A DNA stretch of 64,000 nucleotides from Podospora anserina (taxonomy: Eukaryota). The notes under the pieces are model-generated. The model searched no databases, had not been told where the DNA came from, and saw only the letters and a program-made list of their open reading frames with translations. Made by a program: the position numbers and the translations under genes. This document shows, one piece after another, positions 1 to 60,805 of this stretch. The stretch lies in contig CM030338.1 of the NCBI GenBank assembly GCA_017654855.1, positions 62,001 to 126,000 of the forward strand, read 5' to 3'. Position 1 is the stretch's first letter; each line of letters opens with the position of its first letter.

Positions 1-670
1 AGCAATGAAGAAAGCTAGTGGGGGTCAGATTGATGTCTGGTGTCAACACAAATAGATCATCCAGCAGTCAAGTATGACAGTAGTTTTGCTGATAGGTCGA
101 ATAGGTGGTAGGAAATGAGTGACCCCAAGGAGTCACCCCTGCCTACGATTGGGAGGGAAAGCAACCAGAAAAGAGTATTGCCGATCGGATGTACCTTATG
201 GAAAGCTCCTAACGAATATAATTTATCATGTATGGAAGAACCTATGTTGTTCTTGTGCAGTTAAACCTTGCAGGTATAACAGTGCACAATCAGACAGAAG
301 AAACTCAGTGAAGAGGCCTTGCCATTTGCAAGATTGTAGCGCTTTCCCCTTTCAGATATAATTCGTTTTATAGAGAACTTGAGGCTAGATCCCTCGGTCT
401 CAGCTTACACCCAAGATAACGGCCCGCTTTGTTCTAACCGGGGTCATTATATAAAGGCTGAACTTACGTTTTCGTCTTAGTCAAGGTATATGCTTTGTAC
501 AGAGAGGCTGGTTTACGGCAATACTCACAGACGATTCAGCTGCAGTGGTTTGTTTTCTAGTGCTCTAGGTTCTCGTAGATAATTCTTTGTCTTTCAGGAC
601 TCTATCACTTAAACTTTCAAATCTAATATCGGTTCCATCTATGCTCCTAGACATGTGCTAAGTACCTCTA

Positions 671-712
671 ACGTATATTATAAGCGAGCGACCAATATAA
701 ACGAGCGACCAC
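671..712 (+). repeat. F1 left terminal inverted repeat (TIR, ~42 bp, two internal AAGCGAGCGACC-like units)
   Basis: Reverse complement of 60597-60638 with 2 transition mismatches. Confidence 0.95.
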
Positions 713-759
713 TTTTTCACAACCTTTATATTATTATCTTTAATTACTATACAACCATA

Positions 760-1431
760 CTAAGAAGCAACCATAATTATATCCGAAATAGCTGAATCAG
801 ACAATTCTATAGCCTCCTGGTAAGTGCGCGCATTATGGCCAAGCTTGCCGCACACACCACAGCACTGAACCTTCGTACGAGCCCCCCCTGCACCACCGCC
901 ATCCGGCTATATTTCTTCCACTGCCTCCCCACCCACGGCCTTCTGGTCCAGTAGATCCTATACATCTTGCACAGTAAGTGATCCTCCGAGCCGTACACGT
1001 GTTTTTTTAGCTCTCCGGCGCTTACTTAGTGCCTCATTGGCCTTACGGAGCGAAGAGACCTCTGCCTGTAAGAGGGCCACTTAATATATTACAGCTATCG
1101 TACCCTTAGTAAATTAATTTATAGCACCTAATATTAAAGTCGGGGAACTATTTTAATGGTTAGTAATACGAGTTTTAATAAGCGTAAAGTGTAAGTTAGT
1201 TTTTCGGGGATTTTATAGTATTTAGAATACCTAAGGGAGTGCCGTGCCTGGCCTTAAGGATAGGGGTATTAGCGTATAAAGCTTTATATCTAGCTTAGAA
1301 AATACCCTCTCTAAATCGTATAGTATAAGGCTAGCACCTATAAAGCTACCCTATATATTTTTCTCCGTTATAAAGATAAATAAGGCCTCGCGGAAGGTAT
1401 AAAGAAACTCGAGCTTATTTATATAGTTAAT
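760..1431 (-). pseudogene. F1 transposase, C-terminal part with CCHC zinc knuckle
   Basis: Minus strand reads GARTKVQCCGVCGKLGHNARTYQEA near 810-885. Stop TAG at 762-760 lies 89 bp from the terminus, as in F2. Confidence 0.9.
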
Positions 1432-1703
1432 TGTTACGCCCTAAGTATAATAACCCCGTAAAGGAACCACTAGGTAGTTCCCGAGGTGCTGGGACACCTT
1501 AGCTAATTATTGGGCCAAGGATAGGAAGACCTATAAAGTCCCCATATAACTAATTAGGAGGTGCTTAGTCTAATTAGTAGCTAAGACCATTAAGCACACT
1601 AAATATATTAATTATAAAAAATTACTTAATTTACTTAGCCGCTAAAACCACTGAGTACACTAAGTAAGGTACAAAAATACTTTAGAAATATATATAGATA
1701 GCT

Positions 1704-2126
1704 TGTAACGAACCTCTATCTAAAACTTCTGAAAGGGATACTAATTAAAGGTAACTTCTAAATAATCCTAATTTAGTGCAGCTAAATAGTGTATAATAAG
1801 ATATCTTAATATAAATACAAAATGCCGTGAATATAAACTTAAATTGTATATTACGGAACTATTTATTTACACTAACTAATTCCTCCGTATATATAGACCT
1901 CGTATTAAGCCCTAATTATAGTGATTATTCCGCTCGTTCCTAATAATTATAATAATCGCTATAATCCTCCGTAGCTCCCTATTAATTATATTACTGCGAT
2001 TACTATATCTTACTAATTTACTATTTATAATCGTATATCTTTATCCTAATTAATCCTACTAGCGATTAACTATACGTTTTATACCCCGCATACGGTCCGT
2101 CCTACCTATTTAGCTTAATTATAATA
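1704..2126 (-). repeat. 3' LTR of B
   Basis: Direct repeat of 58868-59290 with TG...CA-type ends (partly RIPed). Confidence 0.95.
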
Positions 2127-2131
2127 TAATA

Positions 2132-2142
2132 CCCCTCCTTCT
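2132..2142 (-). other. Polypurine tract of B
   Basis: CCCCTCCTTCT on plus is AGAAGGAGGGG on minus, 5 nt from the LTR. Confidence 0.8.
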
Positions 2143-2234
2143 AGGTCGAAGTCCCGTCGACTTAAAGCCTAAAATAACCGCCTATCGCTTACTTTTCTTT
2201 ACTTATAAGTCTTTCTCTTCTCCTTATTACTATA

Positions 2235-2883
2235 ATATTTAACCCTTATAGAGTTTTTAAATCTTTATAACCCTTTATTCCGAACGTTAGTCCGTAATAC
2301 AGTCGTTATTTAACCTTAATTACCCTTATTTATCTTAAAGGCTTTATTATTATACCCTATTTTTTTATACTACCCGTAATTTAATTTATTACTTTTATAA
2401 ACGTTTTTCCCGTTACGGCAAGTATATATATCGAGGCCGTTTATATAACGCGTCGGGCACTCTTACTATTATAAATCGGTTAGTTTATTCCTTTTTTAAT
2501 ACTCTATTTAACCTTATTTAATCGAGTACTTAATTACCGAATATCGCCGTTTATCTTTAAAGAAATTGGCCGCCGAGAAATAACTTTTAAATATTTATTA
2601 TAAAGCCGAAAAGGCTACGCGTAAAGTGTAGGAAACCGTTATATATTTATCCCGCCTTTATTAATAGAAACGATATTTATTAAAGCGGGGTACCGCTATT
2701 ATTAGCGAGGTGGTACCTACGCTCGACCTTCCTATTACTACTACTTTTAATACTAATTTCTTTTTCTTAGATCCTTCCTTAGGCTTCGACTAGCCGCCTA
2801 ACCTTTCCCTAGACCCGGGCGTAGCCGGTCCTTCCTTCCTAACCCCGCAAGGTACCGCCGAGGGCGCACATTCCACTTCCTAA
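2235..2883 (+). pseudogene. Antisense accessory ORF of B: Zn(II)2Cys6-like cluster, coiled coil and low-complexity tail (RIPed; boundaries approximate)
   Basis: Six TAT/TAC codons (RIP of TGT/TGC) at 2358-2446 are spaced x2-x6-x8-x2-x6, needing +1 nt in the T run at ~2361. A downstream frame reads ...LSRL(H)QQKR(H)LLKRG...DPSLGFD(W)PPNL. Confidence 0.65.
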
Positions 2884-2959
2884 AGTAATTAAAACGTATA
2901 ATATTATTTATATTTAGGTCCTTTCACTCTTTCTAACCTCGTAATATAATATATAATAT

Positions 2960-4046
2960 ATTAATTATTACGTTAAAAGCGTAGGTTCGATTCTTATTAA
3001 GGTTTTCGAGTTTTTATATTATCGCTATTTAGCGGTAATTTAAAGACCTATTTTTTTTATTTAGGTTTTAGTCGGTTTAAATATCGTTAGTAGAATTCTT
3101 TTTATTTATTTAAGTAATTAAAATTTATTTTTAATTCCTATAAATTATTTATAATTAAATATTTTAATTAATTAATTAAATACTTTAATTAAACTTTATT
3201 AAACCATAAATTTAATATTTTCTTTATATTATATTTTTATTTTTTATTTTTTATTATAACCTATATATTAATTTTATTTATATATAGTACGGGTTCTAAA
3301 AGTAAGATATAAAAGGTATATAATTATAAACGTATTATATTAAGTAACTCTAATTCGAATATTATCTTTAAGATCTTCTTTTTAACTTTAAATAAGCTTA
3401 CTCTCCTATAGTCTAGCTTTTTATTAGGTTTTTTAATACGTAAATTACGTATAAAAAGAAATATTATATCCTTCCCTTTAAAATAAAGTCTTTCGAGCTT
3501 TTTAATATTATAGTATTTCCGTATCCTTTCCTTTATAAATTTTAATGTTTATTTAAGTTTATTGTAAAGTATATATAATTTATTTACTTTAACCTTAAGC
3601 TTAAATACCTCTATATTTAGTTTCTACTATAACTTTATTTTATATTTAAAATTTATAAAAAACGGTATAGCTTTAATTATTTTAATTAATAATATATTAT
3701 ATATTAATTATATTATAAATAATAATTTAATTTAATCGTTTTATTCGAAATTAATATAATTCCGTAAATATTATTTTATGTTTTAATTAAACCGTTCCGT
3801 TTAACCGTTTATTTAAGGGTAATAGGCCGATAATACTTTATTTATTACCCTTAACTTCGTTATTAATATTTTTTAAAATTTCGATATAAATTTAATATTA
3901 CGGTCCGTAATAAATTTTTTTAATTATATATATATTAATATAATATACTGTAGTACTATATCCGTTAATTATTTTATCGATTAGAATTTTTTATAAAGTA
4001 AAAAGTATATTTATTTAATAAATTTATCGATTACCGTTAATATATT
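2960..4046 (-). pseudogene. B pol, C-terminal integrase and chromodomain (boundaries approximate)
   Basis: De-RIPed minus strand gives a chromodomain-like KYLI.W......NLWE...NL at ~3110-3190 and an integrase YHP(Q).(D)G(Q)TER motif at ~3790-3830. Confidence 0.7.
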
Positions 4047-4680
4047 TATTAATATGTGGGTACTACTAAGTGCCTTACTTACTGCCCTACAGATTAATAT
4101 TATAGTGGGCAGTACTGCTATAAGCAGTAATGGAACTTCCCGGCTTGGATCCCTTTAGAATATTCTTTATAAGGGACCCTTGAAGGCTTATAGGGCTACT
4201 GTAGCCTAAGGCTTAGTTAATAGATACTAGAACCTTCTAAAGTGGCTATAGGCTTACGTAGTAAGTTGCTACAATAATGTAATTTACAGGGCACCTTTGC
4301 TACTGAAGGTTCTATAGATTTCCATAAGTCTATACTAAACCCACCTAAGCCTACTAAATACCTAAAGTGGTATAGGGGCTTCCAGGGCCTACAGGACCTA
4401 TAGTAAGCCTACGAAGGCCTATATATAAACCTCTTCTCTCTCCTGTAAAATAGTTCTTTTCTTTCTTTCCTTAAGGGCAAAAGCTTAAGGCTAAAGCCAA
4501 AGGCCAAAGCTAAGGGTAATAAAGGCAATTCTTATTCTTTATACCTCACTGTATTATAGTGCTTTACCTTCCTTCGGCACTGCCGTCGTATCCTCCCGCT
4601 TCCGCTTACGCACTGCTGTATTTTATAGCAACCCTATATAGGTTCTATATTATAGGCCTATCAGGGCTTACTAGCTAACA
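4047..4680 (+). repeat. 5' LTR of copia C
   Basis: Direct repeat of 51873-52506 and inverted repeat of 54475-55106. Confidence 0.95.
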
Positions 4681-4942: not shown

Positions 4943-5399
4943 TGAAATGGTGAGAAAACACACAAAACAACCACAACACCACAAATATACCCTCAACAGG
5001 TCTTAGAATGAACATACCTGCGTGACAGTAACTCGCTCGCAGGCCGCACTTCACGTAGGATAAAGAAAAGACACTATAAGCTCGCAGGCTACATAATAAG
5101 CACCGGATTGGCCTAATTAGAGGGCTAGAATTACCTACACGCGTGTAAGGTATAAAATATAAAGAAAAGAATGAAAGTTAATATCCTATCTAAAATAGAA
5201 TGTCCGAAGCAAACCGCTTATATATATAACCCCTAAACCCCTAAGTCCTCTAAGAGCCCCGCTTCTTTACTTATACTTTTAAGCCTATAGCCGTACCCTA
5301 AACTAAATTTCCTTTCGCATTTAATTATTATAAATTAGTAAGTAAATACGTATATAAGAAAAAAATCTTTTATAAATTAAAAAAAAAAATATCGTTTAA

Positions 5400-8300
5400 T
5401 AAAAAAAAAAGAAAATAATATAATTTTATTATTCCTTTATCCATTATTTTTTAATTAAAGAAAAAAACACCTTTACTTTTCGGATTTTAAAATATATTTC
5501 CGTCCCTATCGAATTATTATAATTAGTAACTTAATAACTTCTTTTTTTCGTTTTTAAAGAACTTTAAAAACTTATTTTTATTTTATAAAATTAAATATAT
5601 AATTAGGCGAAAAATATATTATTAATAATTTTAAATAATTATAAGTAAGGGGACGGGTAATTATAGGCTTAAAGAGGAGTAACGAGTTTATTATTATAAA
5701 AGTACGGAATTTAAAAAGGATTATTACCATACTTAATTATTAAAAATTATTTAATATATTACTTAATTTAAACCTTTTATAATTAAAGGGAAGACCTACG
5801 ATATATTTTTTTCCTTTAATAATAATAATTAAAATTAATAAAAAATTAAGGAGGGAAATAAATCGGGGAATTAATAGAGATTTAAAAGGAAATAAAAAGG
5901 TATTTAATAAATTAAATTTTTTTATATTTATTAAGTTTTTTAAGCTTTTCCTCCTTTATTTTTTATTATATACTTTTTAATTAAATTTATAATTTAAAAA
6001 CCTTTTTATATAAATTATTTATAATTTTATTATTTTTTTCCTTATAATATTTATAGTCTTATAATTTTTATAATAACGATCTTTTTTTTAAGTTTTTACT
6101 ACCGTTAAATCTTCTTTTTTACCGTATAAAATATTTTTTTAAAAGTAAGTATAGTAATACTTTAAAAACTAAAAACTATATTTTTATACCCTACTTTATT
6201 TATTATAAACTAACTTCTTTATTTTTATATTAAAGTTATAATAAAAAATGTAATAAATATAAAATATTAAGTAAAAAATAATATTAATTTAATACCTTTT
6301 TTAATTTTTTAATAAATTTATATAAATTAAAATACTAATAATAATATTATAAACACTTATTACTTAATAATTTTCGTTATTAATATAAATAGGGAGGATT
6401 TAATATTATTAATTAAAAATATTATAATTATCGTTAAGTAAAAAAAAATATATTAACGATTTTATTATAATAAAGTTTAAAGGCTTTTTAAAGATCTATA
6501 TATAATGCTCGAGGATTTTTTAAAAAAAATATCGAAAAACGTAAGTAAGGACCGAACTAATAAATTATTATTTAACCTTTAATTAATTTTAAAGGTTATA
6601 TATAATATAAATAAAGGAAATTATATAAATATTATAAATATAAGTCCGATTAGGGGGGGTTATTATTTTTAAATTAAAAAAAAAATATTTAATAATATTA
6701 ATCGAAAATTATTTTACAAAAATAATATTAATTTAATCGGGCCGCTTTTTTATAATATAATTTTTTAGGTTAATAATTAAATTAAAAATAAAATAAATAA
6801 ATTAAAAAGTATTATTACTTTAAGGAAAAAAAATACCGTGCGGGGGACTAAAGCTATAAACCTTATCGATACTTTAAAAACGTATTTTCCGAATAATTTT
6901 TTTAACGAGATTATTAAGAGGGCCGAATTTCTTAATAATAATAAATTTTTCCTATAATATATTATAAATAAATTTTATAAAAAATATTAATAATATTATT
7001 TTATAAAAATTAAAAGGGAATAATATATAGTATAATCTATAATTAAAGGATTATCGAAAGGAAAGTAAAAAAAATTTTTAAAATAAAAAATTAAAGAAAA
7101 AAAAAAATTTTTAATAAATTTTTATTTTTTATTATTTATTTAATTTATAAAGTAAAATTATTAAATAATTATATAAATTATTTAAAGAGGAAAGAATATT
7201 TTAATAAGTTTCTTTCTTATAGAGGTTTATAAAACTAATTATACCGTTCTATTTTTTAATTATAAATACTTATATTAATTTTTTTTATTCCCACTTACTT
7301 TTTATTTTTTTTAATATTTATTAACCGTTTTCTTTTAATAATTTTTTTTTTAAAAAAATTTATTATTTTATCCGATTAAATAATTAATAACCTTATTATT
7401 TAAATATTTATAACCTCTTTTGTTAAAAAACTTTTTAATTAAATCGAGGAAGTTTTTAATTTTATTACGTACGATTAATCCGAGGTCGCTATAAACTTTA
7501 TTTAAAAACCTTTATTTATTACCTTTACTTATTATCCTACCGACTTTACTTATATTTTTAATAATTAAAGTATTATTTATAAAAAATATATTTAAGTTCG
7601 GCGTTTTATTTATATTTATAATTTTATTATATTTAAAAATATTAATATTTATTATAAAATTTTTTTTTTTTATTAAACTACTTTTTAATACTTTAAGATT
7701 TCCTTTTTAAATTTTAAATATATAATTACTTTCCTTTATTTTAAATAATTACTCTTTAATTTAACGAAAAAAAAAATAAAAAAGAATAATAATTATTTTT
7801 TAAGGATATTAGTACGGATAAAACTATTATTAATTATATTTCTAAAGCGTTATTAATCGGTTTTATTAAATAGATTTTTATTAAACGGTTTAATAAATAG
7901 TTTTTCGGGTATTAATTTTTTAAAATCGTTAAACGGGTTTATTATTTTAAAAATTTATTTATTTAAATTATTAAATTATTATAAGTACCGCCTTTCTAAT
8001 TAAATTTAATTTAATATTAATATATTAAATTTAATTATATTAATTTATATAATAAATATAATTAAAGTTATTATTAATCTTTCGTAACGTTCCCCGATAG
8101 GACTAAAACTAAAGTAATATAATTATATTTCAGTTATATAAAAAATAAAGGACTTCGATTAAAAATATAAAAATTATTAATATAAAGGTATTTATTATTT
8201 ATAATTTAATATTAATAAAAATAACTTTTATTTTAAGGATTTTAATAATAATAGGTTATTAAAGTTAAATCGTAATACCGTAAACTTAATTTTTAATAAT

Positions 8301-8500
8301 AAAGAAATTAATTAGGACTAAAAGTAGGAAGAATAGCGGGCTAAATATAAAGAGTTTAAAAAGTAATAAATAAATAAAAAGAAAGAAAAAAAAAAAGAAA
8401 AGAAATAATTTTTTACTTCCTTAAATTAAAGGAAGGGGTATAAAGAAAGGAGTAAATCGGAAAAAAAAATAATAGGAAAAGAAAAAGAAAAAATTAAAAA
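5400..8500 (+). pseudogene. Antisense accessory coding region of D in D1, unknown product (boundaries approximate)
   Basis: A by-eye consensus of four copies gives long frames whose stops are TAA/TAG (RIP of CAA/CAG/TGG), e.g. IDTLKARFP(DD)FF(D)EIIKRAEFL at ~6865-6935. Confidence 0.6.
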
Positions 8501-11500
8501 TTTAATATAATAATTTTTATTTTAATTAATTACTTCCTTTAATATTTTTCTTTCCTTTAAAAATAAATAACTCCTATAATTCTATTCTTATAATATAAAC
8601 TTTAATACCCTTTTAAAAAAAATAATAATTATAATATTTTTATTATTATTTCCCCCTAATTATTTAAAAAGTTCTTTAATCTACCCTTTTTTTAAAACTA
8701 CCTTTATACTTTTACCCTTTTTAAATCTTTTTTATACTTTAATATTTTTCCGTTCTATTTAAATTTTTCCCTTAATTATTATTTTCCTTAATATTTTTTT
8801 TACTATTTTTTTTTCTTTATTTTTATTTTCTACTATATTTATACCTTCCTTTACTTTATTTTTAAATATTTATTTAACTTTCCTTAGTCCTAACTATATA
8901 TCCGTATCCTTTTTATTTATATATACGTTTTCCAACCTAAAAAACTTCTTTACTTTATTTAATATATAAAGAATTTATAATAATATTTTATTTAATATTT
9001 TTAAAAAATAATAAATATTATTTAATTTAATTTTTTTTATTTTAAAAGGGCCGTCCTAATAATACTATAATTTTTTTATTATATTTATATTTAACTTTTT
9101 ATTTATTTTATATATTAATATTAAATTTCTCCTTTTAATTATATTATTTTTAAATTTAATATTATAAATCCCTTTTCTATTTTTTTTTACTATAGCTTTC
9201 TATTTTACTATACTAACCTTCTTAATTACTAAAGTTAAATTTATTTTTTAAGCTTTTAATAGTCTTACCCTTACCTTTATTAAATCTATAGTCGCTCTTT
9301 CCTTTTAATATCTCCCTAATTTATTAAAACTAATTTTTTCCTATTAAATAATTTTTTATAACGGTATATTTTTTTCGATTGATATAATAAAATTAAACCT
9401 ATATATTAAATAGAAAGTACTATACCTATAAATATTTTATATTATAGTCTTATTAATAAATAATATATAAGGGAGTTACTATTTTTATTTTTTCCCCGTC
9501 CTATCTATTATTTTTATTAATATCGATATAATTAAAATATAATTAAATTCCGTTACTCTATTTACTTTTACGTTATAAAATAAAATTATTATCCAAAAAA
9601 CTTTTAATTTTTTTAAAATCTTAATAACTTCTTTCCTAAATTTTAATCCGCCGTTTACTACTACGATTAAAGGGTAACCCTATTTAAAAATAATATTATA
9701 TAGAATAAAGTTTTTAACCCTAAAAACCTTATTTAAATTTTAAACTTTTACTTTTAAATACTTAATTAAGTTATGCTTTATTTTTAGAAAATAAGTTTTT
9801 TCTCCCGAAACTATTAATAAAAATTAAATATTTAAATATTACTTTATAAATAAAATAATTAAAAACTTAATATATAAATATTAATTTTCTTAACGTTTCG
9901 GGCTTTATTATTAATATTATTTATATATTTTAATCTAAACCTCGATATTAATATATATACCTTTTTAATAATAATATTTTATTATTCGGGTATAAATAGT
10001 TTTCCGTCCTTTATAACCTATTTCGTTATAATATATATTAAAGATTTTTTCCTATTTAATTAAAGGGTTAATAATTTTTTTAAGGGGAAAACTTCCTTTA
10101 TTTAATTTAAAAAATAAAATTCTATTTTTAAAAATTATTTTTAAAATATTATTTTTAATAATTTAAACATTAAACTTTATTTTAGCCCTTAGCTCCGTAC
10201 TAGTCGCGAGGAATTCGGCGATAGTATAGGAGTAAAGAAACTATAGTTTATTTAAATAGAGGTTTTACTTAATAATTTCTTTTTTTTTTTTTAATTTTTA
10301 TTTATTTAATATTTATTTTTTAAATATCGTTCTTTTAAATCCTTATATTAATTTTATTATTAATATTTAACTTTAATTTTTTCTCCTTTAAATTAAAGGG
10401 GCTAAATAGTTTTCTCGATAATACGTTTACTATAAGGTTTTTATTTTTAAAAATATAAATAATTATAAAGTCGAAAAGTTTAATTTATTTTAATTATTTT
10501 ATTATTAAAATACTAAAAATATTATTAACCGCCCTTTAAATTTAATAAACTATTATTTAAATATTTATTTCTACCGTAAAATATACTCCGAAAAAATACC
10601 TTTTAAATCTCTTTAAAATATATAATAATCTTTTTAATTCCCTCTTAATAGTATTATACCTTTATTTAACCGGACTTTAAATATTACTTTTAAATTAATA
10701 AAGGTACCGTTTTTTATTAAGTTTTACTTATTTAATTACCGCTCCTTACCCTATTAAATTTATATTAAAAATAATAAAAATTTTATCGAAACGATTATTA
10801 TTAAACGTTAAAGAAATTAAATATAATATTTTTATAATTAAAAAAATAAATTATTTTATCGTACTTTATTAAACTTTTATTTATTCTTATTTTATATCTT
10901 TCTTTATTAAAAAATATAACGGAATTACGATTAAATTAAAGAAAGGTATTTATAGTTAATAGTAACCGGTAATCTTTTAAAAAATATAAATATTTTTAAA
11001 ACTATAGTAAATTCGCTATTCCCTTATTTTTATTATTTTTATTTAATTAAGGAGGCGCCCGTCCGGTATATAAAAATAATTAAAAATAATAATTTCCCAT
11101 TTATATTAAAAGGATTTTAAGGTTATAATTATAGTTCCTATAAATCTATAATTAAATAAAACTATATCGATATTCTTTAAATATTTTAGGACCTACTTTT
11201 TAATTTTTAATTTTTTTTCTTTACTATTATAATCCTACTTTAACCCTTTTACTATAATATCGTTTAAATATAACCGATATACCTATAGGATAAAATTTTA
11301 AAAGACTTTAATTACGATTTTTTAAAATTAAACTATTAAGTTAGTAGCTCTTTAAAGTAAAATATATATCTTAAATAGGCCGATAAATATTACAAAAATA
11401 ATAAAGTTTCGGTTTATTAAAATTAATTTAATTTAATTATATTTAAAAAAAAATTAAGTAAAGAAATAATAAAGTACCTTATAAAATCCTCGCTAAACTC

Positions 11501-16010: not shown

Positions 16011-19000
16011 TGGTTTAGGGTACGGCTATAAGCCTAAAAGTATAAGTAAGGAAGCGGGGCTCTCAAAGGACTTAGGGGTTCAGGGGTCATGTATATAAGC
16101 GGTTTACTTCGGATATTTTATTTTAAATAGGACATCAACTTTTATTCTTTTCTTCGTATTTTGTGCCTTATACGCGTGCAGGCAATTCTAGCCCTCTAAT
16201 TAGGCTAATCCGGTGCTTATTATATAGCCTGCGAGCCTATAGTGTTTTTTCTTTATCCTACTTAAAGTGCGGCCTACGAGCGAGTTACTATCACGTAAAT
16301 ATATTTATTCTGAGACCTATTAAGGGTATATTTATAGTATTATAGTTATTTTATATATTTTTTTACTATTTTAAATAGAGGTTATACCCGGGTTAAGTAA
16401 AGCTTAGGGTTTAAACTAAACTTATAAGCCTTAAGTATTAAACAAAGTGCGAAGTTACGAACGATAATAAGTATTAATAACTTTATTAAACCCCGCGTAG
16501 TTTAACGGAAACGATTTTTTTTCGTTTAATCGAATAAAACTTTTTTATTATCGACTAAACTTTAAACTTTTTACCCGCGAGTAAAGAGTTAAATATATAA
16601 TCCGGATAAGACCGGAAAATAAATTAAAAATATTAATTAAAACTAGCTCGTTAATAAACCTTATTTCTATATTAATTATTAAAATCCTTTTTTATTTTTA
16701 ATTAAAAAAAATCCTTTTAATATATTATTTAACGATAATAAATAATTATAGGGATTTCCGGATTAATTTAATTTAGAATATCGGGAATTTAAAAGTAAAA
16801 AAATAAAAATACTTTCCCTTTAATTTAAATAAATATAACTTATACTTATATATTAAAATTATAAAGGATAACCGTTTTTATATTTTTAATAATATATATA
16901 AAGAAAAAACTATATTATTAACGTAAACGTAATAATAATTATTAAATATTAATATATTTAATAATATTTTACTTATCGCTTCGATTAGTTTTTCTAGCGA
17001 TAATTAAAGGTATTAAACTCTTACGGTTTATTTTATAATAAAAGTAATTATTCTGGCGGTTAGGTCCCCGGAATTATTATTATTTATCCTTTCCCCGGCT
17101 ATAAACCGCGCTTACTTTAAAGATATTAAAATCTTTTACCCCCTTTTTAATTAAAGTAGCCCGACTATAAAACTTAACGCTTCTAACGTATTAAATAGAC
17201 CTCGTACCTACCTAAATCCTATTACTTAAAATTATATTATACTTTTTATTCGATTAATAAAATATTCTATTTTTTTTCCGGGATTCGTATATTAATTTTA
17301 ATAATTTAAATATTTATATTTTATAAAAATTTACCCCGACTATCGTTATTTTTAAAGGTCCTTTATATTTAATTATTTAACCTTTTATTTTATAATACTT
17401 ATATATTTTCTTTAACGTAAATTCTTTAATCTAAAGAAAGTTAATTTTAAAAATAATTTTAAAAGAAAGTACTTTACGGAATATTTAAAATATTTCGAGA
17501 ATACCTATAAAGAATATTATATTATAAAATTTATTTTTTACGTTCGTAAATTTAAATTTTAATATAATTTCGATATAGGAAAATAGATTAACGAATATAT
17601 AAACTTATTTATATTTACCGATATTTAATTTATTTTAATTATCCGTTTTAAATATTTTTTTAAAATCTATAACCCCCGATAAAATAAAAATATTTATAAG
17701 GAGTTAAATAACTTTTACATTAAAGTTATTTTTAAAAGTATAAGCGAATTAAAAAAAATTATTTTTAATTATTTTAAATTATTTTTTCGAGTACCGACCG
17801 GGGAAAAAGAAGTAATAAAAATTAAAGTTATTAATTGCTTTTAAGTAAAATTTTTTAAATTAATAAAAATAATTTTTATTAATCGAGAAAAATTTAAATA
17901 TCGTTTAAAATCTATAAATTTTATTATTTAAAATAATTAAATTAATAATATAATTAAAAATAAATATAATATAGGAAAAAGAAATTATAAAAAAAATAAA
18001 TTAATTATTATACCTTCCTCTATTACTTTTAATTAGGTAACCGAAATACTCGATTAATATATAACGGTTAACGTTATAATAAATAATAAAATAATATTAT
18101 AATATTTAAAAATAAATATTTATAATAGTTTTTTTATATTAAAAAATAGTAAATTTAGGATAATAAAAATTTACGTTTAATATTTAAAAAACTAAGTACT
18201 TTACTTTCTAGATTTTAATATTAATTTTAATAGGGAAATAGATTTATTTTTTAATATTTTTTTTATTATTAATATTAAAATTTAATTTAGAAAATTAAAA
18301 GGGTAGTATTATAATAACCTTCCTTTATTAAAAAAATACTTTTAGTATCGTAAGATTAGTTATTACGTTAAGTCGACGGAATATCCGAAAAAAGAATATA
18401 ATAAGGTATAAGGACTATACTATATTAAAGAAAGTAAAATATATATTAATAAAAAAAAATAATTAAAAAATAAAAAAATATAATTTAATTAAAAGAATAT
18501 AAAGAAGGTATAGTATAAAGGGAAGGTTAGTAATTTAGTTTATATTATAATTTCGTTAAAATTAAAATTAAATAGGGCTTATAAAGCTTATATAAAATAG
18601 GTTAAGTATTAGGAAGTTTGTAAGGGTAAGGGATATAAGCCCGAGGTTTCTTTAATTAAAGGGAAAGAATAAATAGTTATTTAGATAATTAAAGCTATAA
18701 ATATTAAATTAAATAAACTTTATAAATACTTTAAACCCTATATACCGTTTAATAAAAATTTAATTAATAATTATATTATTAAAAATATTTTATAATATTA
18801 TTTAATAAAAAAATAATTATTTAAAAGTATTTTAAAGTACTTTAATAATACTTTAATAATTATTTATAATTAAAAAATAAAAATAGGGGTAGGCGCGTAA
18901 AGAGCGAAGAGAATAAAGATTGAGGATTTACCGAAAAAGAATATAAATAACTTAGTTTTAACCGAAAATCCGAAAATAATATTTATTTTTACGTAAAAGA

Positions 19001-22000
19001 AACTAAAGGTAATTAAAAAGGGAGTTTCGTTTAATTAAGAGAATTAAGTCCGGAATAGTTTAAAATTATTTAATAGTAAAGTAAAGGATTTTAAGGATTA
19101 TATTATTGAAAAAACTAAAAAATATATTTATAATTAAATTAAAATTATATTAAAAAAATATTATAAGGTTTTACTTATATTTATTTATCGGTTAATAAAT
19201 TATATAAAAAGTATAGTTAAGGATATTAAAGTAATTAAATAGCGTAAATCTTTTAAAAATATTTTAAATAAAAAAAAAAAAGTTTTATAAAAGGGAGAGG
19301 CTTTACCGTTAATAGTTCGGATAAATTTTTAAACGGTTAAATATAATAAAACTCCTTTATTTAATTAAAAGAAAATTATTTTTATTTTATATAGGATTAC
19401 GGCGGATAATAAATATAATATAATCGAAGGAAGTATTTAAAAAAAGATTATTAAAAGTAAGGTTTAATCGGGTAATAGTTTAAAAAAGTAATTACGGACT
19501 TTACTATTTATACCTATTAACCGGCTTTCCGGTAATAAACGAATTTTCTTAAAAATTATTATTCGAACCTATAACGTTTTATTACTATATTATAACTTCG
19601 TTTTACTAATTTTAAAAAAAATACTAATAATATTAAATATAAGCTCGGAATATAACTTAATTAATAAAGCTATAATTAAAAAGTTTTATTTACTAATAAT
19701 ATTAATAAACCTATAGTTTAAAGGCCTTTATAAAGATTTAATTACGTTTATAAATAAAACTTAAACTTTAATAATATTAATTAAAATCTTAATTTTATAT
19801 TATTTTTTTATTATTAATAATATTAAAGCTTTAAATTTCTATAACTTACTATTAAATATCTTATTTTTTATAAATATAAACCTTACCCTTAATTTTATAA
19901 AGGGCTATATAATTAACGTAAATATATTATATAAAAGAAAATTAATTAAAACCTATATAATAAAAAAAGAGGTAATTAATAAAATAAAAGCGGAATATAA
20001 TAATAAGGATCGAGGTAATACTTTTTTTACTAATTAACCTTTATAAATATTTAAGGGATTAATTAATAAAGAAGTACCTATCCCTAAATAGGTAACGGAG
20101 GAACTAAAGGAAAGGAATAAAGTAATTAAGGGATTAAATAAAAAAACTAAATATTCTTTATTTAATTTTATTTTAAGGGAATTAAATTTATTATTATTAA
20201 ATTATTATTTAACGTTTAATATTATTTTTTATAAAAATAAAGAAAAGGGGGATATTAAGAGTAAAGGAAGAAAGAATATTAATAATTAAAAGTAAAGAAA
20301 GAAGGGAGGTATAAGGGACTATTAAAAAAAAAGTTTTTATTTTAACCTAAAAAAGTAAAGATTATAATAAAAACTTTAATTTCGGACGAAATTTTAAAGA
20401 AAGAACGACCGTTATTACTAACCTTTATAATAAATCTATATTTAGTACCGTCGCTATTACTACTAAAAATATTACTACCGTTTAATTAAAGGACTAATAG
20501 AATAATCTTATTTAAGTTTAATATAATATTTTTATATTTAAAAATATTTAATTAGTCCCTTATTAAACTAGGTTAATATAACTTCTTTACTATATAACTA
20601 TATAAATATTATTTATTTCCGCCCTCTTTTAAAAAAAAAAATAATATAAAGATTAATTTAATTATTATTTTTAAATAAACTTAATTAACGCCTATAAATA
20701 TTATTATTATTATTATAATATATAAAAGGGTAAATAAAAAAGTAAAGCCGGTTAATAATACTAAATTAAATAATAATATTCTTAAAGGAAATTTAAATTA
20801 AAAAGTAAAGAAATAAATAATAATTAAAGAATTCCTATAATATAACTTAGAATTTAATAATATTATAGTCCTTAAGTTTTTTAAAATAATTAAAGAGTTA
20901 TACTTTATTTTAAAACGTTTAATTAATTTAATTAAATAAATTATTAATATTTTAATAAATTAATAAATTAAAATATTTATAATAATTTTATTTATAAAGG
21001 AAACTATATTAATATAGGATTTTACCGAATATAAATAGATTTTTAAAAAAGTTTTTTCTATTTAATATATTAAAATTATCTTTTATAAAATATAATAAAA
21101 TAAATTTATTTTAATCCCGAAACTATTTATAAAGAAAATTATTAATTTCTTTAAGGAATAAATTAAGAAAAATATTATTAAAGAAACGTATAGTCCTTAC
21201 CGTAATAATTAGTTTTTAATAAAAAAAAAATTTAGTAATTTCCGTTTAATTAATAATATTTAAAAATATAATAAAATTATATAACGAAATACTTTTATTT
21301 TATTAAATATTAAGGAATTTAGTAAGGACTTTATAAAATACTTTATTATTTCTTTATTTAATTTTTTTTTTAAATATAATTAAATTAAATTAATTCTAAT
21401 AAACTAAAACCTTATTACTTTCGCGATACTTATTAGCCTATTTAAAATATATACTTTATTTTAAAAAGTTATTAATTTAGTAATTTAATTCTAAAAAGCC
21501 GTAATTAAAATCTTTTAAAATTTTATCTTATAAATATATCGGTTATACTTAAATAATATTATAGTAAAAGGATTAAAGTAAAATTATAATAATAAAAAAA
21601 AAAGGTTAAGAATTAAAAAGTAGGTCCTAAAATATTTAAAAAATATTAACGTAATTTTATTTAATTATAAATTTATAGAAACTATAATTATAACTATAAA
21701 ATCCCTTTAATATAAATAAAAAACTATTATCTTTAACTATTTTTATATATCGGACGGGCGCCTCCTTAATTAAATAAAAATAATAAAAATAAAAGAATAA
21801 TAAATTTATTATAATTTTAAAAATATTTATACTTTTTTAAAAATTACCGATTACTATCGGCTATAAGTACCTTTCTTTAATTTAATTATAATTCCATTAT
21901 ATCTTTTAATAAGGAAGGATATAAAATAAAAATAAACGGAAATTTAATAAAATATAATAAAGTAATTTACTTTTTTAATTATAGAAATACCGTATTTAAT

Positions 22001-25000
22001 TTCTTTAACGTTTAATAATAATTATTTCGGTAAAATCTTTATTATTTTTAATATAAGTTTAACGGGGTAAGGAGCGGTAATTAAATAAGTAGGACTTAAT
22101 AAAAAACGGTACCCTTATCGGTTTCAAAATAATATTTAAAGCCCGGCTAAATAAAAGTATAATACTATTAAAAGGGAGTTAAGAGGATTATTATATATTT
22201 TAAAGAAATTTAAAAAGTATTTTTTCGGAGTATACTTTATAGTAGAAACGGATATTTAAATAGTAGTTTATTAAATTTAAAGGGCGGTTAGTAACGTTCC
22301 CGGTGCTTTAATAATAAAATAATTAAAATAAATTAAACTTTTCGACTTTATAATTATTTATATCCTTAAAAATAAAAACCTTATAATAAACGTATTATCG
22401 AAAAAGCTATTTAGCCCCTTTAATCTAAAAGAAAAAAAATTAAAGTTAAATATTAATAATAAGGTTAACGTAAGGATTTAATAAAACGATATTTAAAAAA
22501 TAAATATTTAATAGGTAAATATTAAAAAAAAAAAAAAAAAAAATTTATTAAATAAAGCCCCTATTTAAATAAATTATAATTTTCTTACTTTTATATTATT
22601 ACCGAATTCTTTACGATTAATATAAAATTAAAAACTAAAACGAAGTTTAATATTTAAATTATTAAAAATAACGCCTTAAAAATAATTTTTAAAAATAAAG
22701 TTTTATTTTTTAAACTAAATAAAAGAGGTTTTTCCCTTAAAAAAATTATTAATTTTTTAATCGAGTAGGAAAAAGTTTTTAATATATATTATAATAAAAT
22801 AAATTATAAAGGACGGAAAATTATTTATACCCGAATAATAAAAAATTATTATTAAAAGGGTATATACGTTAATATTAAAGTTTAAATTAAAATATATAAA
22901 TAATATTAATAATAAAGCCCGAAACGTTAAAAGGATTAATATTTATATATTAAGCCTTTAATTACCCTATTTACGAAATAATATTTAAACGTTTAATTTT
23001 TACTAACGGTTTCGGGAAAAAAAATTTACTTTTTAAAAATAAAAAATAATTTAATTAAATATTTAAAAGTAAAGGTTTTAAATTTAAATAAAATTTTTAA
23101 GATTAAAAACTTTATTTTATATAATATTATTTTTAAATAGGGTTACCCTTTAATCGTAATAGTAAACGGCGGATTAAAATTTAAGAAGGAAACTATTAAA
23201 ATTTTAAAAAGGCTAAAAGTTCTTCGGGTAATAATTTTACTTTATAATATAAAAGTAAATAAAGTAACGGAATTTAATTATATTTTAATTATATTAATAT
23301 TAATAAAAATAACGGATAAGACGGAAAAAAAGTAAAAAAAGTAATTCCTTTATATATTATTTATTAATAGGACTATAATATAAAATATTTATAAATATAA
23401 TACTTTTTATTTAATATATAGGTTTAACTTTATTACGTTAATCGAAAAGAACGTACCGTTATAGAGAATCGTTTAGTAAAAAAAAATTAATTTTAATAAA
23501 TTAAAAAAGTATTAAAAGAAGAGAGCGATTATAGATTTAATAAAGGTAAGGGCAAGACTATTAAAAACTTAAAAAATAAATCTAACTTTAGTAATTAAAA
23601 GAATTAATATAATAAAATAGAAAATTACAGTAAAAAAAAATAAAAAAAGGATTCGTAATATTAAGCTTAAAAATAATATAATTAAAAGGAGGGATTTAGT
23701 ATTAATATATAAAATAAATAGAAAATTAAATATAAATATAGTAAAAAAGTTATAATACCGTTAGGATAACCCTTTTAAAATAAAAAAAATCGAATTAAAT
23801 AATATTTATTACTTTCTAAAAATATTAAGTAAAGTACTATTATAAACTTTTTATATATTAAATAGGGTAAAGAAGTTTTTTAGGTTAAAAGACGTATATA
23901 TAAATAAAGAGGATACGGATATATAATTAGGATTAAGGAAAGTTAAATAAATATTTAAGAATAGAGTAAAGGAAGGCGTGGATATAGTAAAAAATAAAAA
24001 TAAAAAAGAAAAAATAATAAAAGAAATATTAAGGAGAATAATAATTAAGGGAAAAATTTAAATAGAACGGAAAAATATTAAAGTATAAAAGAAATTTAAA
24101 AAAAATAAAAATATAAAAGTAATTTTAAAAAAAAAAAAATTAAAGGATTTTTTAAATAATTAAGGGGAAACGATAACGAAAATATTATAATTATTATTTT
24201 TTTTAAGAGGGTATTAAAGTTTATATTATAAAAATAGAACTATAAAAGTTATTTATTTTTAAAAAGAGGAAAAATATTAAGGAAAATAATTAATTAAAAT
24301 AAAAATTATTATATTAAATTTTTAATTTTTTTTTTTTTTTTATTATTTTTTTTTCCGATTTACTCCTCTCTTTATATTCCTTCCTTTAATTTAAAAAAAT
24401 AAAAAACTATTTTTTTTTTCTTTTTTTTTTTTTATTTATTTATTATTTTTTAAATTCTTTATACTTAACCCGCTATTCTTTTTACTTTTAATTTTAATCG
24501 ATTTCTTTATTATTAAAAATTAAGTTTACGGTACTACGATTTAACTTCGATAACCTATTATTATTAAAATCTTTAAAGTAAAAACTATTTTTATTAATAT
24601 TAAACTATAAATAATAAATATCTTTATATTAATAATTCCTATATTTTTAATCGAGGTCCTTTTTTTTTATATAACCGAAATATAATTATATTATTTTAAT
24701 TTTAGTCCTATCGAGGAACGTTACGAAAGACCGGTAATAACTTTAATCGTATTTATTATATAAATTAATATAATTAAATTTAATATATTAATATTAAATT
24801 AAATTTAATTAAAAAAACGGTACTTATAATAACCTAATAGTTTAAATAAATAAATTTTTAAAATAATAAACCCGTTTAACGATTTCGAAGAACTAACGCC
24901 TAAAAAACTATTTATTAAACTATTTAATAAAAATCCGTTTAATAAAACTGATCGATAATACTTTAAAAATATAATTAATAATAATTTTATCCGTATTAAT

Positions 25001-27837
25001 ATTCTTAAAAAATAATTATTACTTTTTTTTACCCTCTTTTTTTATTAAATTAAAAAGGAATTACTTAAAGTAAAAAAAAATAATTATATATTTAAAATTT
25101 AAAAAATTTTTTTTAAAATATTATAAAGTAATTTAATAAGGGAAAAAAATATTATAATAAATATTAATATTTTTAAGTATAGTAAAATCGTAAACGTAAG
25201 TAAAACGCCGAACCTAAACATACTTTTTATAAATAATATTTTAATTATTAAAAGTACGGGTAAAATCGGTGGGATAATAAATAAAAGTAATAAATAAAAA
25301 CTTTTAAATAAAGTTTATAATAATTTCGGATTAATTATATATAATAAAATTAAAAAAACTTTCGATTTAATTAAAAAGTTTTTTAACGAAAAAGGTTATA
25401 AATATTTAAATAATAAAATCGTTAACCGTTTAATCGGATAAAGTAATAGGTTTTTTTTAAAAAAAGGTTATTAGGAGGAAGCGATTAATAAATATTAAAA
25501 AAGATAAGGAATAAATAGGAATAAAGAGAATTAATATAGGTATTTATAATTAAAAAATAAAATAGTACAATTAATCCTATAAACCTTTATAAAAAAAAAT
25601 TTATTAAAATATTTTTTTTTAAACGGTTTACGTAATTATTTAATAATTTTACTTTATAAATTAAGTAAATAATAAAGAATAAAGATTTACTAAAGACTTT
25701 TTTTTTTTTTTAATTTTTTATTTTAAAAAGAATTTTTTATTTCCTTCTTAATAACTTTTTAATTATAAATTATATTATATATTATTCCCTTTTAATTTTT
25801 ATAAAATTTATTTATAATATATTATAAAAAAAATTTATTATTATTAAAAAATTCGGTCCTTTTAATAATCTTATTAAAGAAATTATTCGGAAAACGCGTT
25901 TTTAAAGTATCGATAGGGTTTATAACTTTAATTTTTTATATAATATTTTTTCTTTTTAAAATAATAATATTTTTTAATTTATTCGTTTTAGCTTTAATTT
26001 AGTTACTAACTTAAGAAATTATATTATAAGAAAGTAATTTAATTAAATTAATATTACTTTTATAAAATAATTTTCGATTAATATTATTAAATATTTTTTT
26101 TTTAATTTAAAAATAACGACCCTCTTTAATTAAATTTATATTTATAGTATTTATATAGTTTCCTTTATTTATATTATATATAACCTTTAAAATTAATTAA
26201 AAACTAAATAATAATTTATTAATTTAGTCTTTACTTACGCTTTTCAATATTTTTTTTAAAAAATCTTTAAATATTATATATAGATCCCTAAAAAGCCTTT
26301 AAACCTTATTATAATAAAGTTATTAATATATTTTTTTTTATTTAATAATAATTATAATATTTTTAATTAACGATATTAAATTTTCTTTATTTATATTAAT
26401 AATAGAAATTATTAAATAATAAATATTTATAATATTATTATTAATATTTTAATTTATATAATTTCGTTAAAAGATTAAAAAGGATATTAAATTAATATTA
26501 TTTTTTATTTAATATTTTATATTTATTATACTTTTTATTATAGTTTTAATATAAAAGTAAAGAGGTTAATTTATAATAAATAAGGTAAGGCGTAGGAATA
26601 TAGTTTTTAAATTTTAAAGTATTATTATATTTATTTTTAAAAAGGTATTTTATATAATAAAAAAAAAAATTTAACGGTAGTAAAAGCTTAAAGAAAAGAT
26701 TATTATTATAAAAATTATAAAACCGTAAATATTATAAAGAAAAAAATAATAAAGTTATAAATAATTTATATAAAAAGGTTTTTAAGTTATAAATTTAATT
26801 AAAGGGTACGTAATAAAAAATAAAAAAGGAGGGGCTTAAAGGATTTAATAAATATAAAAGGATTTAACTTATTAAATACCCTTTTATTTTTTTTTAAATC
26901 TTTATTAATTTTTTAATTTATTTTTTTCTTTAATTCTCCGTTAACTTTAATTATTACTATTAAAAAAAATAAATATATTATAGGTTTTCCTTTTAATTAT
27001 AAAGGGTTTAAATTAAATAATATATCGAATAATTTTTAATAATTAAATAAAGTAATAACTCTTTTTAAATTCCGTACTTTTATAATAATAAATTTACTAT
27101 TCATTTTAAAGCCTATAATTACTTATCCCTTTACTTATAATTATTTAAAATCGTTAATAATATACTTTTCGCTTAATTATATATTTAGTTTTATAAAATA
27201 AAAATAAATTCCTAAAGTTCTTTAAAAATAAAGGAAGGAAATTATTAGGTTATTAATTATGATAGTTTAATAGGGACGGAAATATACTTTAAAATCCGAG
27301 AAATAAAGGTATTTTTCTTTTTAATTAAAGAAAAATAAATAAAGGGATAGTAAGATTATATTATTTTCCTTTTTTTTTATTAAATAATATTTTTTTTTTT
27401 TAATTTATAAAGGATTTTTTTCTTATATACGTATTTATTTATTAATTTATAATAATTAAATGCGAAAGGAGGTTTAGTTTGGGGTACGGTTATAAGCCTA
27501 AAAATATAAATAAAAAAGCGAGGCTTTTAAAGGATTTAGGGGTTTAGGGGTTATATATATAAGCGGTTTACTTCGGATATTCTATTTTAGATAGAATATC
27601 GACTTTTATTTTTCTTTTCGTATTTTATACTTTGCACGCGTGCAGGCAATTCTAGCCCTCTAATCAGGCCAATCCGGTGCTTATTATATAGCCTGCGAGC
27701 CTATAGTGTCTTTTCTTTATCCTACTTAAAGTGCGGCTTGCGAGCGAGTTACTGTTACGTAAGTGTGTTCATTCTAAGACCTGTTAAGGGTATATTTGTA
27801 GTATTGTGGTTGTTTTGTGTGTTTTCTTACTATTTTA
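16011..27837 (+). mobile_element. Large Ty3/gypsy element, copy D2 (uninterrupted, 11827 bp)
   Basis: LTRs at 16011-16373 and 27475-27837. TSD TTAC at 16007-16010 and 27838-27841. PPT GAAAGGAGG at 27464-27472. Confidence 0.95.
16950..24200 (+). pseudogene. D2 gag-pol (boundaries approximate)
   Basis: De-RIPed motifs: zinc knuckle CFWCGKIGH-x6-C at ~18337, protease L(D)x(G)SE(C)NLI at ~19630, RT YL(DD)IxVKG at ~21546, RNase H FGVxFxVETD at ~22225, integrase V(D)GGx(E)FK at ~23162. Confidence 0.85.
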
Positions 27838-28243: not shown

Positions 28244-28260
28244 CCCGGGCACGACCTCCA
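28244..28260 (-). other. Primer-binding site of D1, probably tRNA-Gln
   Basis: Minus strand TGGAGGTCGTGCCCGGG, 2 nt inside the 5' LTR, complementary to a tRNA end ...CCCGGGCACGACCU-CCA. The ACC-U acceptor end fits fungal tRNA-Gln (from memory). Confidence 0.75.
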
Positions 28261-57814: not shown

Positions 57815-57816
57815 TA

Positions 57817-58800: not shown

Positions 58801-58867
58801 TTTTAACTATAATATTATTTTAATACCTTTAATTTATCCGTAATAAAATTAAAATAAATATATAACG

Positions 58868-60801: not shown

Positions 60802-60805
60802 CTCC

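Follow-up and report, generated by a model that had tools for sequence, protein, structure and literature searches.

Several LTR retrotransposons possess an antisense ORF between pol and the 3' LTR, and Boty, Grande, RIRE2 and Retand are named as carriers in the relevant parts of PMC7264820 and PMC11963269. The fungal example, brtn of Boty (2011, Virology 417:248, as cited in PMC7264820, PMC8365987 and PMC4227169), is an antisense ORF that is described as having an unknown function in the portions of these papers that cite it. The plant examples, Grande, RIRE2 and Retand, are Gypsy elements of the Retand/Tat lineage, whose antisense ORFs lie in a long region between POL and the 3' LTR and which are associated with the TRP28 domain (PF04195), according to the sections of PMC11963269 and PMC7264820 on this lineage. 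Retroviral antisense proteins are likewise mentioned in part of PMC11963269, namely HBZ of HTLV-1 and APH-2 of HTLV-2. Antisense ORFs at the pol-3' LTR position are already known, and family D of the fungus Podospora anserina is most likely a further case, dead in the DNA analyzed here. This DNA, hereafter the window, is a single stretch of 64,000 nucleotides that contains the copies D1 to D4.

Like Boty, as outlined in the portions of the literature that concern its layout, family D belongs to the Ty3/gypsy elements of fungi and carries an additional ORF that is located between pol and the 3' LTR and antisense to gag-pol, the two being likened by description only. It differs from the Boty so described in being about twice as long (11.85 kb), in having a 3.2-kb spacer and in showing no intact ORF in the copies seen. 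With Retand, as characterized in the cited sections, it shares the long region between pol and the 3' LTR (2.9-6.6 kb in Retand against 3.2 kb in D) and antisense coding capacity in most copies of a family. Going by the same sections, however, the host of D is a fungus, its pol tail looks chromodomain-like by eye whereas Retand is a non-chromovirus, and it has no real tandem-repeat arrays in the spacer, just short AT-rich low-complexity repeats. Furthermore, the GC-rich relatives P0002, P0003 and P0005 described below lack a match to TRP28 (PF04195), with 0 Pfam families at E <= 10. HBZ and APH-2, as far as that part of the source describes them, may be regarded as analogous in layout only, being encoded opposite gag-pol and near the 3' LTR, with no sequence or domain link to the D spacer.

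Structure and landmarks of family D

Family D is an LTR retrotransposon whose pol is encoded by the minus strand of D1 and D4. A 3.5-kb query aligned over its full length to each of D1, D2, D3 and D4 at 85-86% identity, which bears out the four places given for these copies in the first-pass annotation. The 3.2-kb stretch which that annotation had noticed between pol and the 3' LTR, with pol on the opposite strand, could also be located in the element layout: the spacer spans the region from the pol end to a short run of purines next to the LTR, at 5306-8544 (+) in D1, 27475-24275 (-) in D2, 34345-37573 (+) in D4 and 49421-46187 (-) in D3. On the alignment consensus the LTR ends at position 362 and pol, on the minus strand, at about 3700.

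Self-BLAST and an alignment of eight LTR copies with their flanks delineated the 3' LTR of D1 as a 362-bp TG..CA unit at 4945-5305 (minus strand). The further LTR copies lie at 16013-16373, 27475-27837, 28263-28625, 30599-30962, 33984-34345, 45470-45833 and 49420-49783, and D4 is bounded by direct 362-bp LTRs (33984-34345 and 45470-45833). The TG start and CA end are kept in the least mutated of the eight aligned copies. A polypurine run of 9 nt at 5308-5316, read from the sequence on the minus strand (element sense) and 2 nt before the 3' LTR, probably serves as the PPT. Similarly, a PBS-like 19-mer starting with TGG lies 2 nt after the 5' LTR; it is best preserved in fragment D6 (28242-28260, minus, the sense strand), has its D4 equivalent at 45449-45467 and presumably primes from a tRNA.

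Pfam searches identified an RNase H domain in pol (RT_RNaseH or RT_RNaseH_2, E 2e-8 to 1e-4) in all three copies scanned, at 10566-10781 (-) in D1, 39573-39785 (-) in D4 and 22035-22271 (+) in D2, with the RT_RNaseH cut-off exceeded in two of them. RVT_1 and rve were found in none of the three, sensitivity being poor on RIP-mutated pol. Read by eye, minus frame 1 of the consensus contains, in succession, the YLDD motif of the RT (40290-40301, minus strand, in D4), RNase H and integrase-like motifs. In its LTR and RNase H features the element is a Ty3/gypsy-type LTR retrotransposon.

RIP damage and the reading of mutated frames

The spacer copies show pairwise identities of 0.857-0.871 with few indels. 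Each pair differs by 496-548 transitions against 14-23 transversions, transitions thus making up 96-97% of the copy differences, and the GC content is 14-20%. All four copies in the window have been killed by RIP (repeat-induced point mutation), for which CpC is the least prone dinucleotide context.

The first-pass annotation had proposed that taking the C or G allele wherever any copy keeps it yields protein-like frames over this region. With the CpA sites saturated, such a choice among four copies is unable to restore frames: in the resulting consensus (363-3600) the best frame, plus 1, retains 69 stops in 1078 codons, minus 2 has 92 in 1079 and the other four have 103-119, the longest open run being 92 codons. 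That the stops are almost exclusively TAA or TAG is true (610 of 612), but uninformative because all six frames show the same. A test by stops not explicable by RIP is likewise empty: every stop is a pyrimidine-purine-purine (YRR) codon that RIP transitions can generate out of a codon for Q, W or R.

A workable alternative to the choice of C/G alleles is the combination of purine/pyrimidine statistics with a profile search for unmutated relatives. YRR codons comprise the stop/Q/W/R class and their count is unaltered by RIP transitions. Two other measures were of little use, as the residual GC of the consensus did not vary with codon phase and was uninformative, and a generic eight-class codon likelihood hardly told mirror frames apart.

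A probable ancestral antisense frame in the spacer

The best-supported segment, block S1, lies between the pol end and the LTR on the strand opposite pol and is present in all four window copies. In D1 it occupies 6157-6954 (+), corresponding to consensus 1217-2014 in plus frame 1, as a RIP-destroyed frame of 266 codons. By the coordinate map it lies at 35198-35995 (+) in D4, where tblastn recovers 35213-35611 and 35666-35992. In D3 it lies at 47772-48568 (-), with a 1-nt deletion at consensus 1736 (tblastn 48553-48146 and 48047-47775), and in D2 at 25825-26622 (-), with a tblastn match to P0002 at 26154-25828 and none to P0005 among those listed. D2 also has a 26-nt deletion just past S1 (consensus 2032-2057).

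In S1 only 17 of 266 codons of plus frame 1 are YRR, compared with 37 and 46 in the two remaining plus frames, and 1 of 1000 shuffles is as low. The period-3 power is 12.0, a value that 0 of 1000 shuffles reach, and purines are most frequent at codon position 1. No heterogeneity among frames is seen in the LTR, which was taken as an internal control (p 0.55-0.57, small n). Minus 2, the shadow frame of S1, contains one definite stop and 11 likely TGA over 251 codons, C being retained in any copy at just 3 of the 14 CA-codons with a preceding pyrimidine. As it would hold about 10 stops, this shadow frame is not the gene of S1.

GC-rich relatives

A profile built from the four copies, with stops entered as X, was scored against 1,835,955,588 proteins at a threshold of E <= 0.001 and recovered two matches, P0002 (E 1e-29) and P0003 (E 4e-19), which are clusters of GC-rich peptides of 110-141 aa. 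Together with the cluster members P0004 and P0005 they correspond to the window at each codon if transitions are disregarded, the purine/pyrimidine class agreeing with the consensus at 110/110, 113/113, 109/110 and 141/141 codons. At all ten consensus stops the relatives have Q (seven), W (two) or R (one). Within the window, tblastn places P0002 on all four copies and P0005 on three of them, and neither anywhere else. The inferred GC of the relatives is 0.57-0.64 at codon position 1 and 0.43-0.44 at position 2, as in real genes. These RIP-invariant statistics and relatives support the view that S1 was a genuine protein-coding antisense frame of about 266 codons in the ancestral element. The claim of antisense coding in the first-pass annotation is accordingly supported for this one block, but not for the 3 kb as a single ORF.

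None of the copies seen contains an intact long ORF. The relatives provide open pieces of 110-141 aa that end at stops common to the window and the GC-rich relatives, at 6580-6582 (consensus 1640) and 6955-6957 (consensus 2015) in D1. The GC-rich copies are found on six and five contigs, and those of P0002 and P0003 extend up to 11,513 bp, so that at least one nearly complete copy has a broken S1 frame. The spacer stretch occurs in 20 sequencing runs from five studies of one organism, with no RNA run among the matches listed. As a sign of a possible intron between the two open pieces, the GTAAGT of D1 was discarded, since it reads A-G in the relative and is hence a product of RIP.

Searches for more distant relationships gave no usable match. 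Against PDB the best hits of P0002 (E 0.41) and P0005 (E 0.009) were taken as noise, as were those of a profile search with the four-copy alignments (DBF4 at E 0.02, another at E 1.6). A word search of proteins for longer relatives of P0002 yielded 141 candidates, none of which scored, and the protein atlas returned nothing usable for P0002 and P0005, whose recognition scores of 1512 and 1174 are in the range of shuffled sequences. The AlphaFold single-sequence model of P0002 has a mean pLDDT of 44 and no confident fold. JGI metagenome contigs, queried with P0002 as well as P0005, and viral contigs, queried with P0002, contained pattern matches but no relative. For a 1239-aa read-through of pol there were at least 7999 candidate proteins, and none of the 7999 considered scored, a result uninformative about pol in the relatives. 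Pfam found 0 families in the spacer read-through (plus frames 0, 1, 2 and minus frames 1, 2), for which sensitivity is poor on RIP-mutated frames, and 0 in three frames of fragment D5.

The low atlas recognition, the lack of homologs and the low-confidence fold could be expected if the spacer had never been a gene, i.e. if it were non-coding DNA with a compositional three-base rhythm and the peptides of 110-141 aa were chance ORFs on GC-rich DNA. Chance ORFs of this size do get called (by our own estimate, about 1% for each frame start in DNA of 55% GC), and in-frame stops are common to the window and the relatives. We nevertheless consider this quite unlikely: open stretches of 141 and 110 codons lie side by side in one frame while the shadow frame has about 10 stops, the YRR depletion and the period-3 power are each matched by at most 1 in 1000 shuffles, GC is higher at codon position 1 than at position 2, and the LTR control behaves differently, albeit with its small n.

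Origin and possible role of the antisense frame

The explanation toward which we lean is that S1 is the relic of an antisense ORF between pol and the 3' LTR, preserving the ancestral coding frame of an element killed by RIP. Most likely it belongs with the additional antisense ORFs exemplified by Boty brtn and by the plant Retand/Tat elements. Transcription of such an ORF would have begun within or close to the 3' LTR on the opposite strand, and its product may have acted in the element's own cycle, for instance as a nuclear or regulatory factor, as has been proposed for other ORFs of this kind. In the window S1 is dead and without activity.

If this explanation is true, family D represents the second fungal case, after Boty brtn, of an accessory gene at the position used by Retand/Tat elements and some retroviruses, and the role of such genes becomes amenable to testing in a fungus where GC-rich copies survive, with a protein that matches nothing known. 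For the window itself the practical message is smaller, its copies being dead RIP relics.

A more ambitious version, to which we give a slim chance, is a lineage-specific antisense gene without a known fold, perhaps with multiple exons over most of the spacer and expressed from the 3' LTR side in copies that are still GC-rich, that regulated the element (e.g. through nuclear targeting or by countering genome defence). If so, together with brtn it would indicate that antisense accessory genes are recurrent in fungal chromovirus-like elements.

Coding signals in the rest of the spacer

Codon-like periodicity is also seen in the spacer outside S1 and may reflect additional exons, an ORF in sense direction or ancient coding sequence that has since decayed. 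Over the whole spacer, plus frame 1 has 90 YRR codons in 1079, whereas the two remaining plus frames have 131 and 148 (0 of 1000 shuffles as low), and the purine/pyrimidine period-3 power of 6.8 is reached by 0 of 1000 shuffles. The five peptides quoted in the first-pass annotation are all present, spread over plus frame 2, plus frame 1 (twice) and plus frame 0.

These data bear on the possibility, raised there, that a single ORF of roughly 1000 codons, or else a multi-exon gene, runs antisense across all 3.2 kb. In favor of such a gene, plus frame 1 is the lowest in stop-class codons over the spacer and has the fewest stops after the C/G-allele choice, and there are plus-strand signals at both spacer ends. 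Yet the quoted peptides occur in three frames, plus frame 1 has about 10 stops per 100 codons at consensus 902-1216 and 2018-2400, and the profile search recovered no relative ORF of detectable length in these stop-rich parts (plus frame 1, consensus 1001-1216 and 2018-2260). Moreover, the 110-141-aa ORFs of the relatives end at the window-shared stops at consensus 1640 and 2015, and consensus 2250-3060 would require 70% pyrimidine at codon position 2. A gene across the entire spacer is hence very improbable, and a single ORF of 1000 codons is not supported here.

Strong codon periodicity is also shown by block S2 (7190-8000 in D1, consensus 2250-3060), which reads in minus frame 2, sense to pol, or in its shadow, plus frame 1. 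It was recognized from YRR counts per frame with chi-square, from period-3 power and from a six-frame pseudo-likelihood. In minus frame 2 (consensus 3060-2250) the YRR content is 7.0%, with p 7e-8 among the minus frames, and the measures that RIP leaves unchanged agree with the sense strand no less well than with plus frame 1, the six-frame pattern favoring the sense strand. As an env-like sense ORF, minus frame 2 contains no domain and no open frame and has no relative among proteins of 30-66 aa, and Pfam matches neither frame.

It is conceivable that the spacer is instead a mosaic of decayed foreign coding sequence, with pieces of a host gene or of mobile elements, acquired on both strands by the ancestor, carried as passive cargo. 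The best strand and frame switch five times over the 3.2 kb (+2, -1, +1, -2, +1), the ORFs are interrupted even in GC-rich copies, and gene transduction is one of the origins discussed for such regions of plant elements in the pertinent part of PMC11963269. However, the frame pair +1/-2 is constant over consensus 1200-3300, which suggests one unit. The strand calls lean on purine content, and hydrophobic protein segments could therefore mimic the switches. A Pfam match would be expected for a transposase, an RT or common host domains, and none was found either in the un-mutated peptides or in the RIP-mutated frames, where sensitivity is poor. A mosaic thus appears unlikely, though by no means far-fetched, and the relic of an antisense ORF is the reading of S1 that we retain.

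A further codon-like segment precedes S1 at 5381-5950 of D1 (consensus 441-1010). Its signal belongs to plus frame 2, where YRR codons make up 5.2%, or to minus frame 1 as the shadow, and the segment includes the first two of the quoted peptides and has no Pfam match. Toward the other end of the spacer, a purine-rich tract (R 0.61-0.66) on the plus strand at 8090-8400 contains, in plus frame 0, the stretch that the first-pass annotation had singled out as an acidic end.

Structure and decay of element D

The window is mostly AT-rich repeat, with a GC content of 14-30% from 2 to 60 kb, and its four ORFs of at least 120 aa all lie past 61 kb; those at 61282-62034 (minus strand), 61679-62059 (plus) and 63434-64000 (minus) belong, together with a tRNA-Ser (GCT) gene (60721-60802), to the GC-normal border of the repeat block. 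The four copies of a large gypsy-type element, D, recognized in the first-pass annotation are borne out by four matches at 85-86% identity in which the whole 3.5-kb query is aligned, the stretch itself lying at 5306-8544 in D1 and 34345-37573 in D4 (plus strand), and at 27475-24275 in D2 and 49421-46187 in D3 (minus strand). The D copies (4940-49783) form a nested, inverted cluster: D1 ends at 16038, cut by D2's LTR, the LTR of D4 adjoins D3 at its truncated end (45833), and D fragments at 27838-28628 and 30599-33981 flank a GC-richer insert (28630-30597). Further repeat families, at 80-94% identity, are present between 669 and 4680 and between 51873 and 60325, pairing 669-1431 with 57054-57816, 1687-2128 with 58851-59292, 3966-4680 with both 51873-52506 and 54462-55191, and 56266-57059 with 59532-60325.

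Self-comparison of the window gives a unit of 11.85 kb with 362-bp direct repeats, of which D4 (33984-45833) and D2 (16013-27837) are complete. The least mutated LTR copies start with TG and end with CA; on the minus strand, 2 nt separate one LTR from an internal PBS-like 19-mer starting with TGG, and likewise the other from an internal 9-nt purine run. The 3' end of the tRNA-Ser (GCT) does not match the PBS-like site. The octamer AACCCGGG of this site has one further occurrence, at 51195, within a repeat of higher GC content (50-52 kb) that may be a second element sharing the primer of D.

On the minus strand, all three copies scanned have Pfam matches to RT_RNaseH and RT_RNaseH_2 (E 2e-8 to 1e-4), and none has a match to RVT_1 or rve. 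In the consensus translation the order YLDD, RNase H block and integrase-like motifs could be followed by eye to near consensus 3700. The anatomy first proposed, with pol on the minus strand in D1 and D4 and 3.2 kb between pol and the PPT-like run plus 3' LTR, is therefore right; as pol yields so few matches after repeat-induced point mutation (RIP), negative domain searches on the D copies weigh little. The region from the PBS-like site to protease/RT, ~4 kb (D4 ~41600-45448, consensus 7600-11500), is much longer than a usual gag and recurs in D1, D2 and the fragment 30963-33981; it has coding-like statistics in the pol frame, with 6.4-7.1% pyrimidine-purine-purine (YRR) codons, and no Pfam match in the three frames scanned for the fragment that mutation has affected least.

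The LTR-plus-spacer pieces have pairwise identities of 0.857-0.871 and differ by 496-548 transitions and 14-23 transversions, with rare indels, a signature of RIP. Among recoverable spacer sites, the mutated share over the four copies falls from CpA (0.74) through CpT (0.53) and CpG (0.45) to CpC (0.31), with CpA near saturation (18 CpA sites left in the consensus).

Traces of coding in the spacer

An antisense coding region of ~3 kb had been read between pol and the 3' LTR by taking the C/G allele at every site where it survives in a copy. No frame of such a consensus is open: its GC is still 29.6%, and between consensus 363 and 3600 stops interrupt all six frames, at 69 of 1078 codons in plus frame 1 (plus being antisense to pol), 92 of 1079 in minus frame 2 and 103-119 in the other four, the longest open run being 92 codons. 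The remark that only TAA and TAG stops occur is true (610 of 612 stops in six frames) but equally so of every frame, and the five quoted peptides are all present but spread over plus frames 2, 2, 1, 1 and 0. As every stop codon is YRR and can be produced from Q, W or R codons through RIP, the check suggested there, a search for stops that RIP cannot explain, can never turn any up.

RIP makes transitions only, so the purine/pyrimidine string is ancestral, and YRR codons are expected at ~7% in a true frame and ~12.5% in others. In the pol control, YRR codons make up 6.4-7.1% of the sense frame in three blocks and 9.4% in the fourth, RT-RH; the shadow of that frame on the opposite strand has 6.4-11%, and most remaining frames 10-19%. 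Frame heterogeneity is significant in each spacer sub-block (p 4e-3 to 7e-8) and not in the LTR (p 0.55-0.57, at small n). Across the entire spacer, 90 of the 1079 codons in plus frame 1 are YRR, against 131 and 148 in its two companion frames on that strand; none of 1000 shuffles is as extreme, and the period-3 power of 6.8 is likewise matched by none of 1000. Together these features indicate that most of the spacer formerly encoded protein.

Which strand was coding is difficult to decide, as the signal of a coding frame appears in its shadow too. A six-frame score that was trained on pol and leans on purine content changes along the spacer through +2, -1, +1, -2 and +1; at consensus 2250-3060, minus frame 2 (sense to pol) agrees with the YRR counts of the six frames better than does plus frame 1, whose aligned mirror has 23.8% YRR versus 9-10% in the pol controls. 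A purine-rich plus-strand tract (D1 8090-8490, R 0.61-0.66) adjoins a strongly pyrimidine-rich stretch (R 0.29-0.38) at the end of pol.

GC-rich relatives of an antisense block

A profile of plus frame 1 over consensus 1001-2260, where the range of this search ended, built from the four copies with stops as X, was compared with 1,835,955,588 proteins and gave two matches at E <= 0.001, P0002 (110 aa, E 1e-29) and P0003 (113 aa, E 4e-19), whose clusters bring in P0004 (110 aa) and P0005 (141 aa). Assemblies of public sequencing runs are the source of all four proteins, with P0002 on six contigs and P0003 on five, the longest of 11,513 bp; a GC-rich copy of ~11.5 kb is present in public data. 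The block concerned is termed S1 (consensus 1217-2014; D1 6157-6954, D4 35198-35995, D3 48568-47772, D2 26622-25825). In these proteins the frame of the window is present in a GC-rich form: in purine/pyrimidine class they agree with it at 141/141, 113/113, 110/110 and 109/110 codons, 71/141 and 70/110 residues are identical to the consensus, and where the consensus has its ten stops they carry Q (7), W (2) or R (1). By tblastn P0002 finds all four copies and P0005 three of four (E 2e-25 to 2e-33), with no other convincing place across the window. The GC content inferred for the relatives reaches 0.57-0.64 at the first codon position, compared with 0.43-0.44 at the second.

The minus 2 shadow frame of S1 would carry one definite stop and 11 likely TGA stops over 251 codons; only 3 of 14 CA-codons after a pyrimidine retain C in any copy, CpC being the least RIP-prone context. 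We conclude that S1 was once a genuine coding frame on the strand opposite to pol. The first-pass annotation holds in part, and so does its interpretation: an antisense coding region is supported for S1, and one open frame over the whole ~3 kb is not supported. The best reading, which we hold with slightly more confidence than doubt, is that a large gypsy-type element once had an antisense accessory ORF of ~270 codons, of which RIP has left a dead relic. The remaining spacer was formerly coding, with sense and antisense both as candidate strands. Plus frame 1 at consensus 1001-1216 and 2018-2260 has no ORF of scorable length among the 1,835,955,588 proteins, and a search with minus frame 2 among proteins of 30-66 aa gave no relative.

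The relatives' ORFs terminate at two stops common to the window (consensus 1640 and 2015), and no intact long ORF was seen in the window copies or the relatives. P0003 starts 28 codons after P0005 and has I where P0005 has V, differences which hint that the GC-rich copies may themselves be lightly RIP-mutated. At E <= 10, Pfam gives no family for P0002, P0003 or P0005, and hence no TRP28; a PDB search with P0002 and P0005 gave a best E of 0.009, a word search among longer proteins yielded no relative of P0002, and scans of metagenome and viral contigs none either. The protein atlas returned no usable match for P0002 and P0005, with recognition scores (1512 and 1174) in the range of shuffled sequences. 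AlphaFold predicts five short helices for P0002 from its single sequence, with a mean pLDDT of 44.

Comparison with known antisense ORFs

The antisense ORF of element D would be a further case of an already described kind. Extra antisense ORFs located between pol and the 3' LTR have been reported in the plant elements Grande of maize, RIRE2 of rice, Retand of Silene and PvRetro13 of Phaseolus (PMC7264820). The Retand account gives a POL-3'LTR region of 2.9-6.6 kb with antisense ORFs, TRP28 encoded in 97% of clusters and tandem arrays in half of the elements (PMC11963269). Element D shares this layout of a long stretch between pol and the 3' LTR with an antisense ORF, but differs from Retand as there described in having neither TRP28 nor real tandem arrays, and in its fungal host. 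The fungal case in these sources is the brtn gene of Boty in Botrytis cinerea and Sclerotinia sclerotiorum (PMC7264820, PMC8365987, PMC4227169), which element D resembles in layout: a fungal element with an antisense ORF between pol and the 3' LTR.
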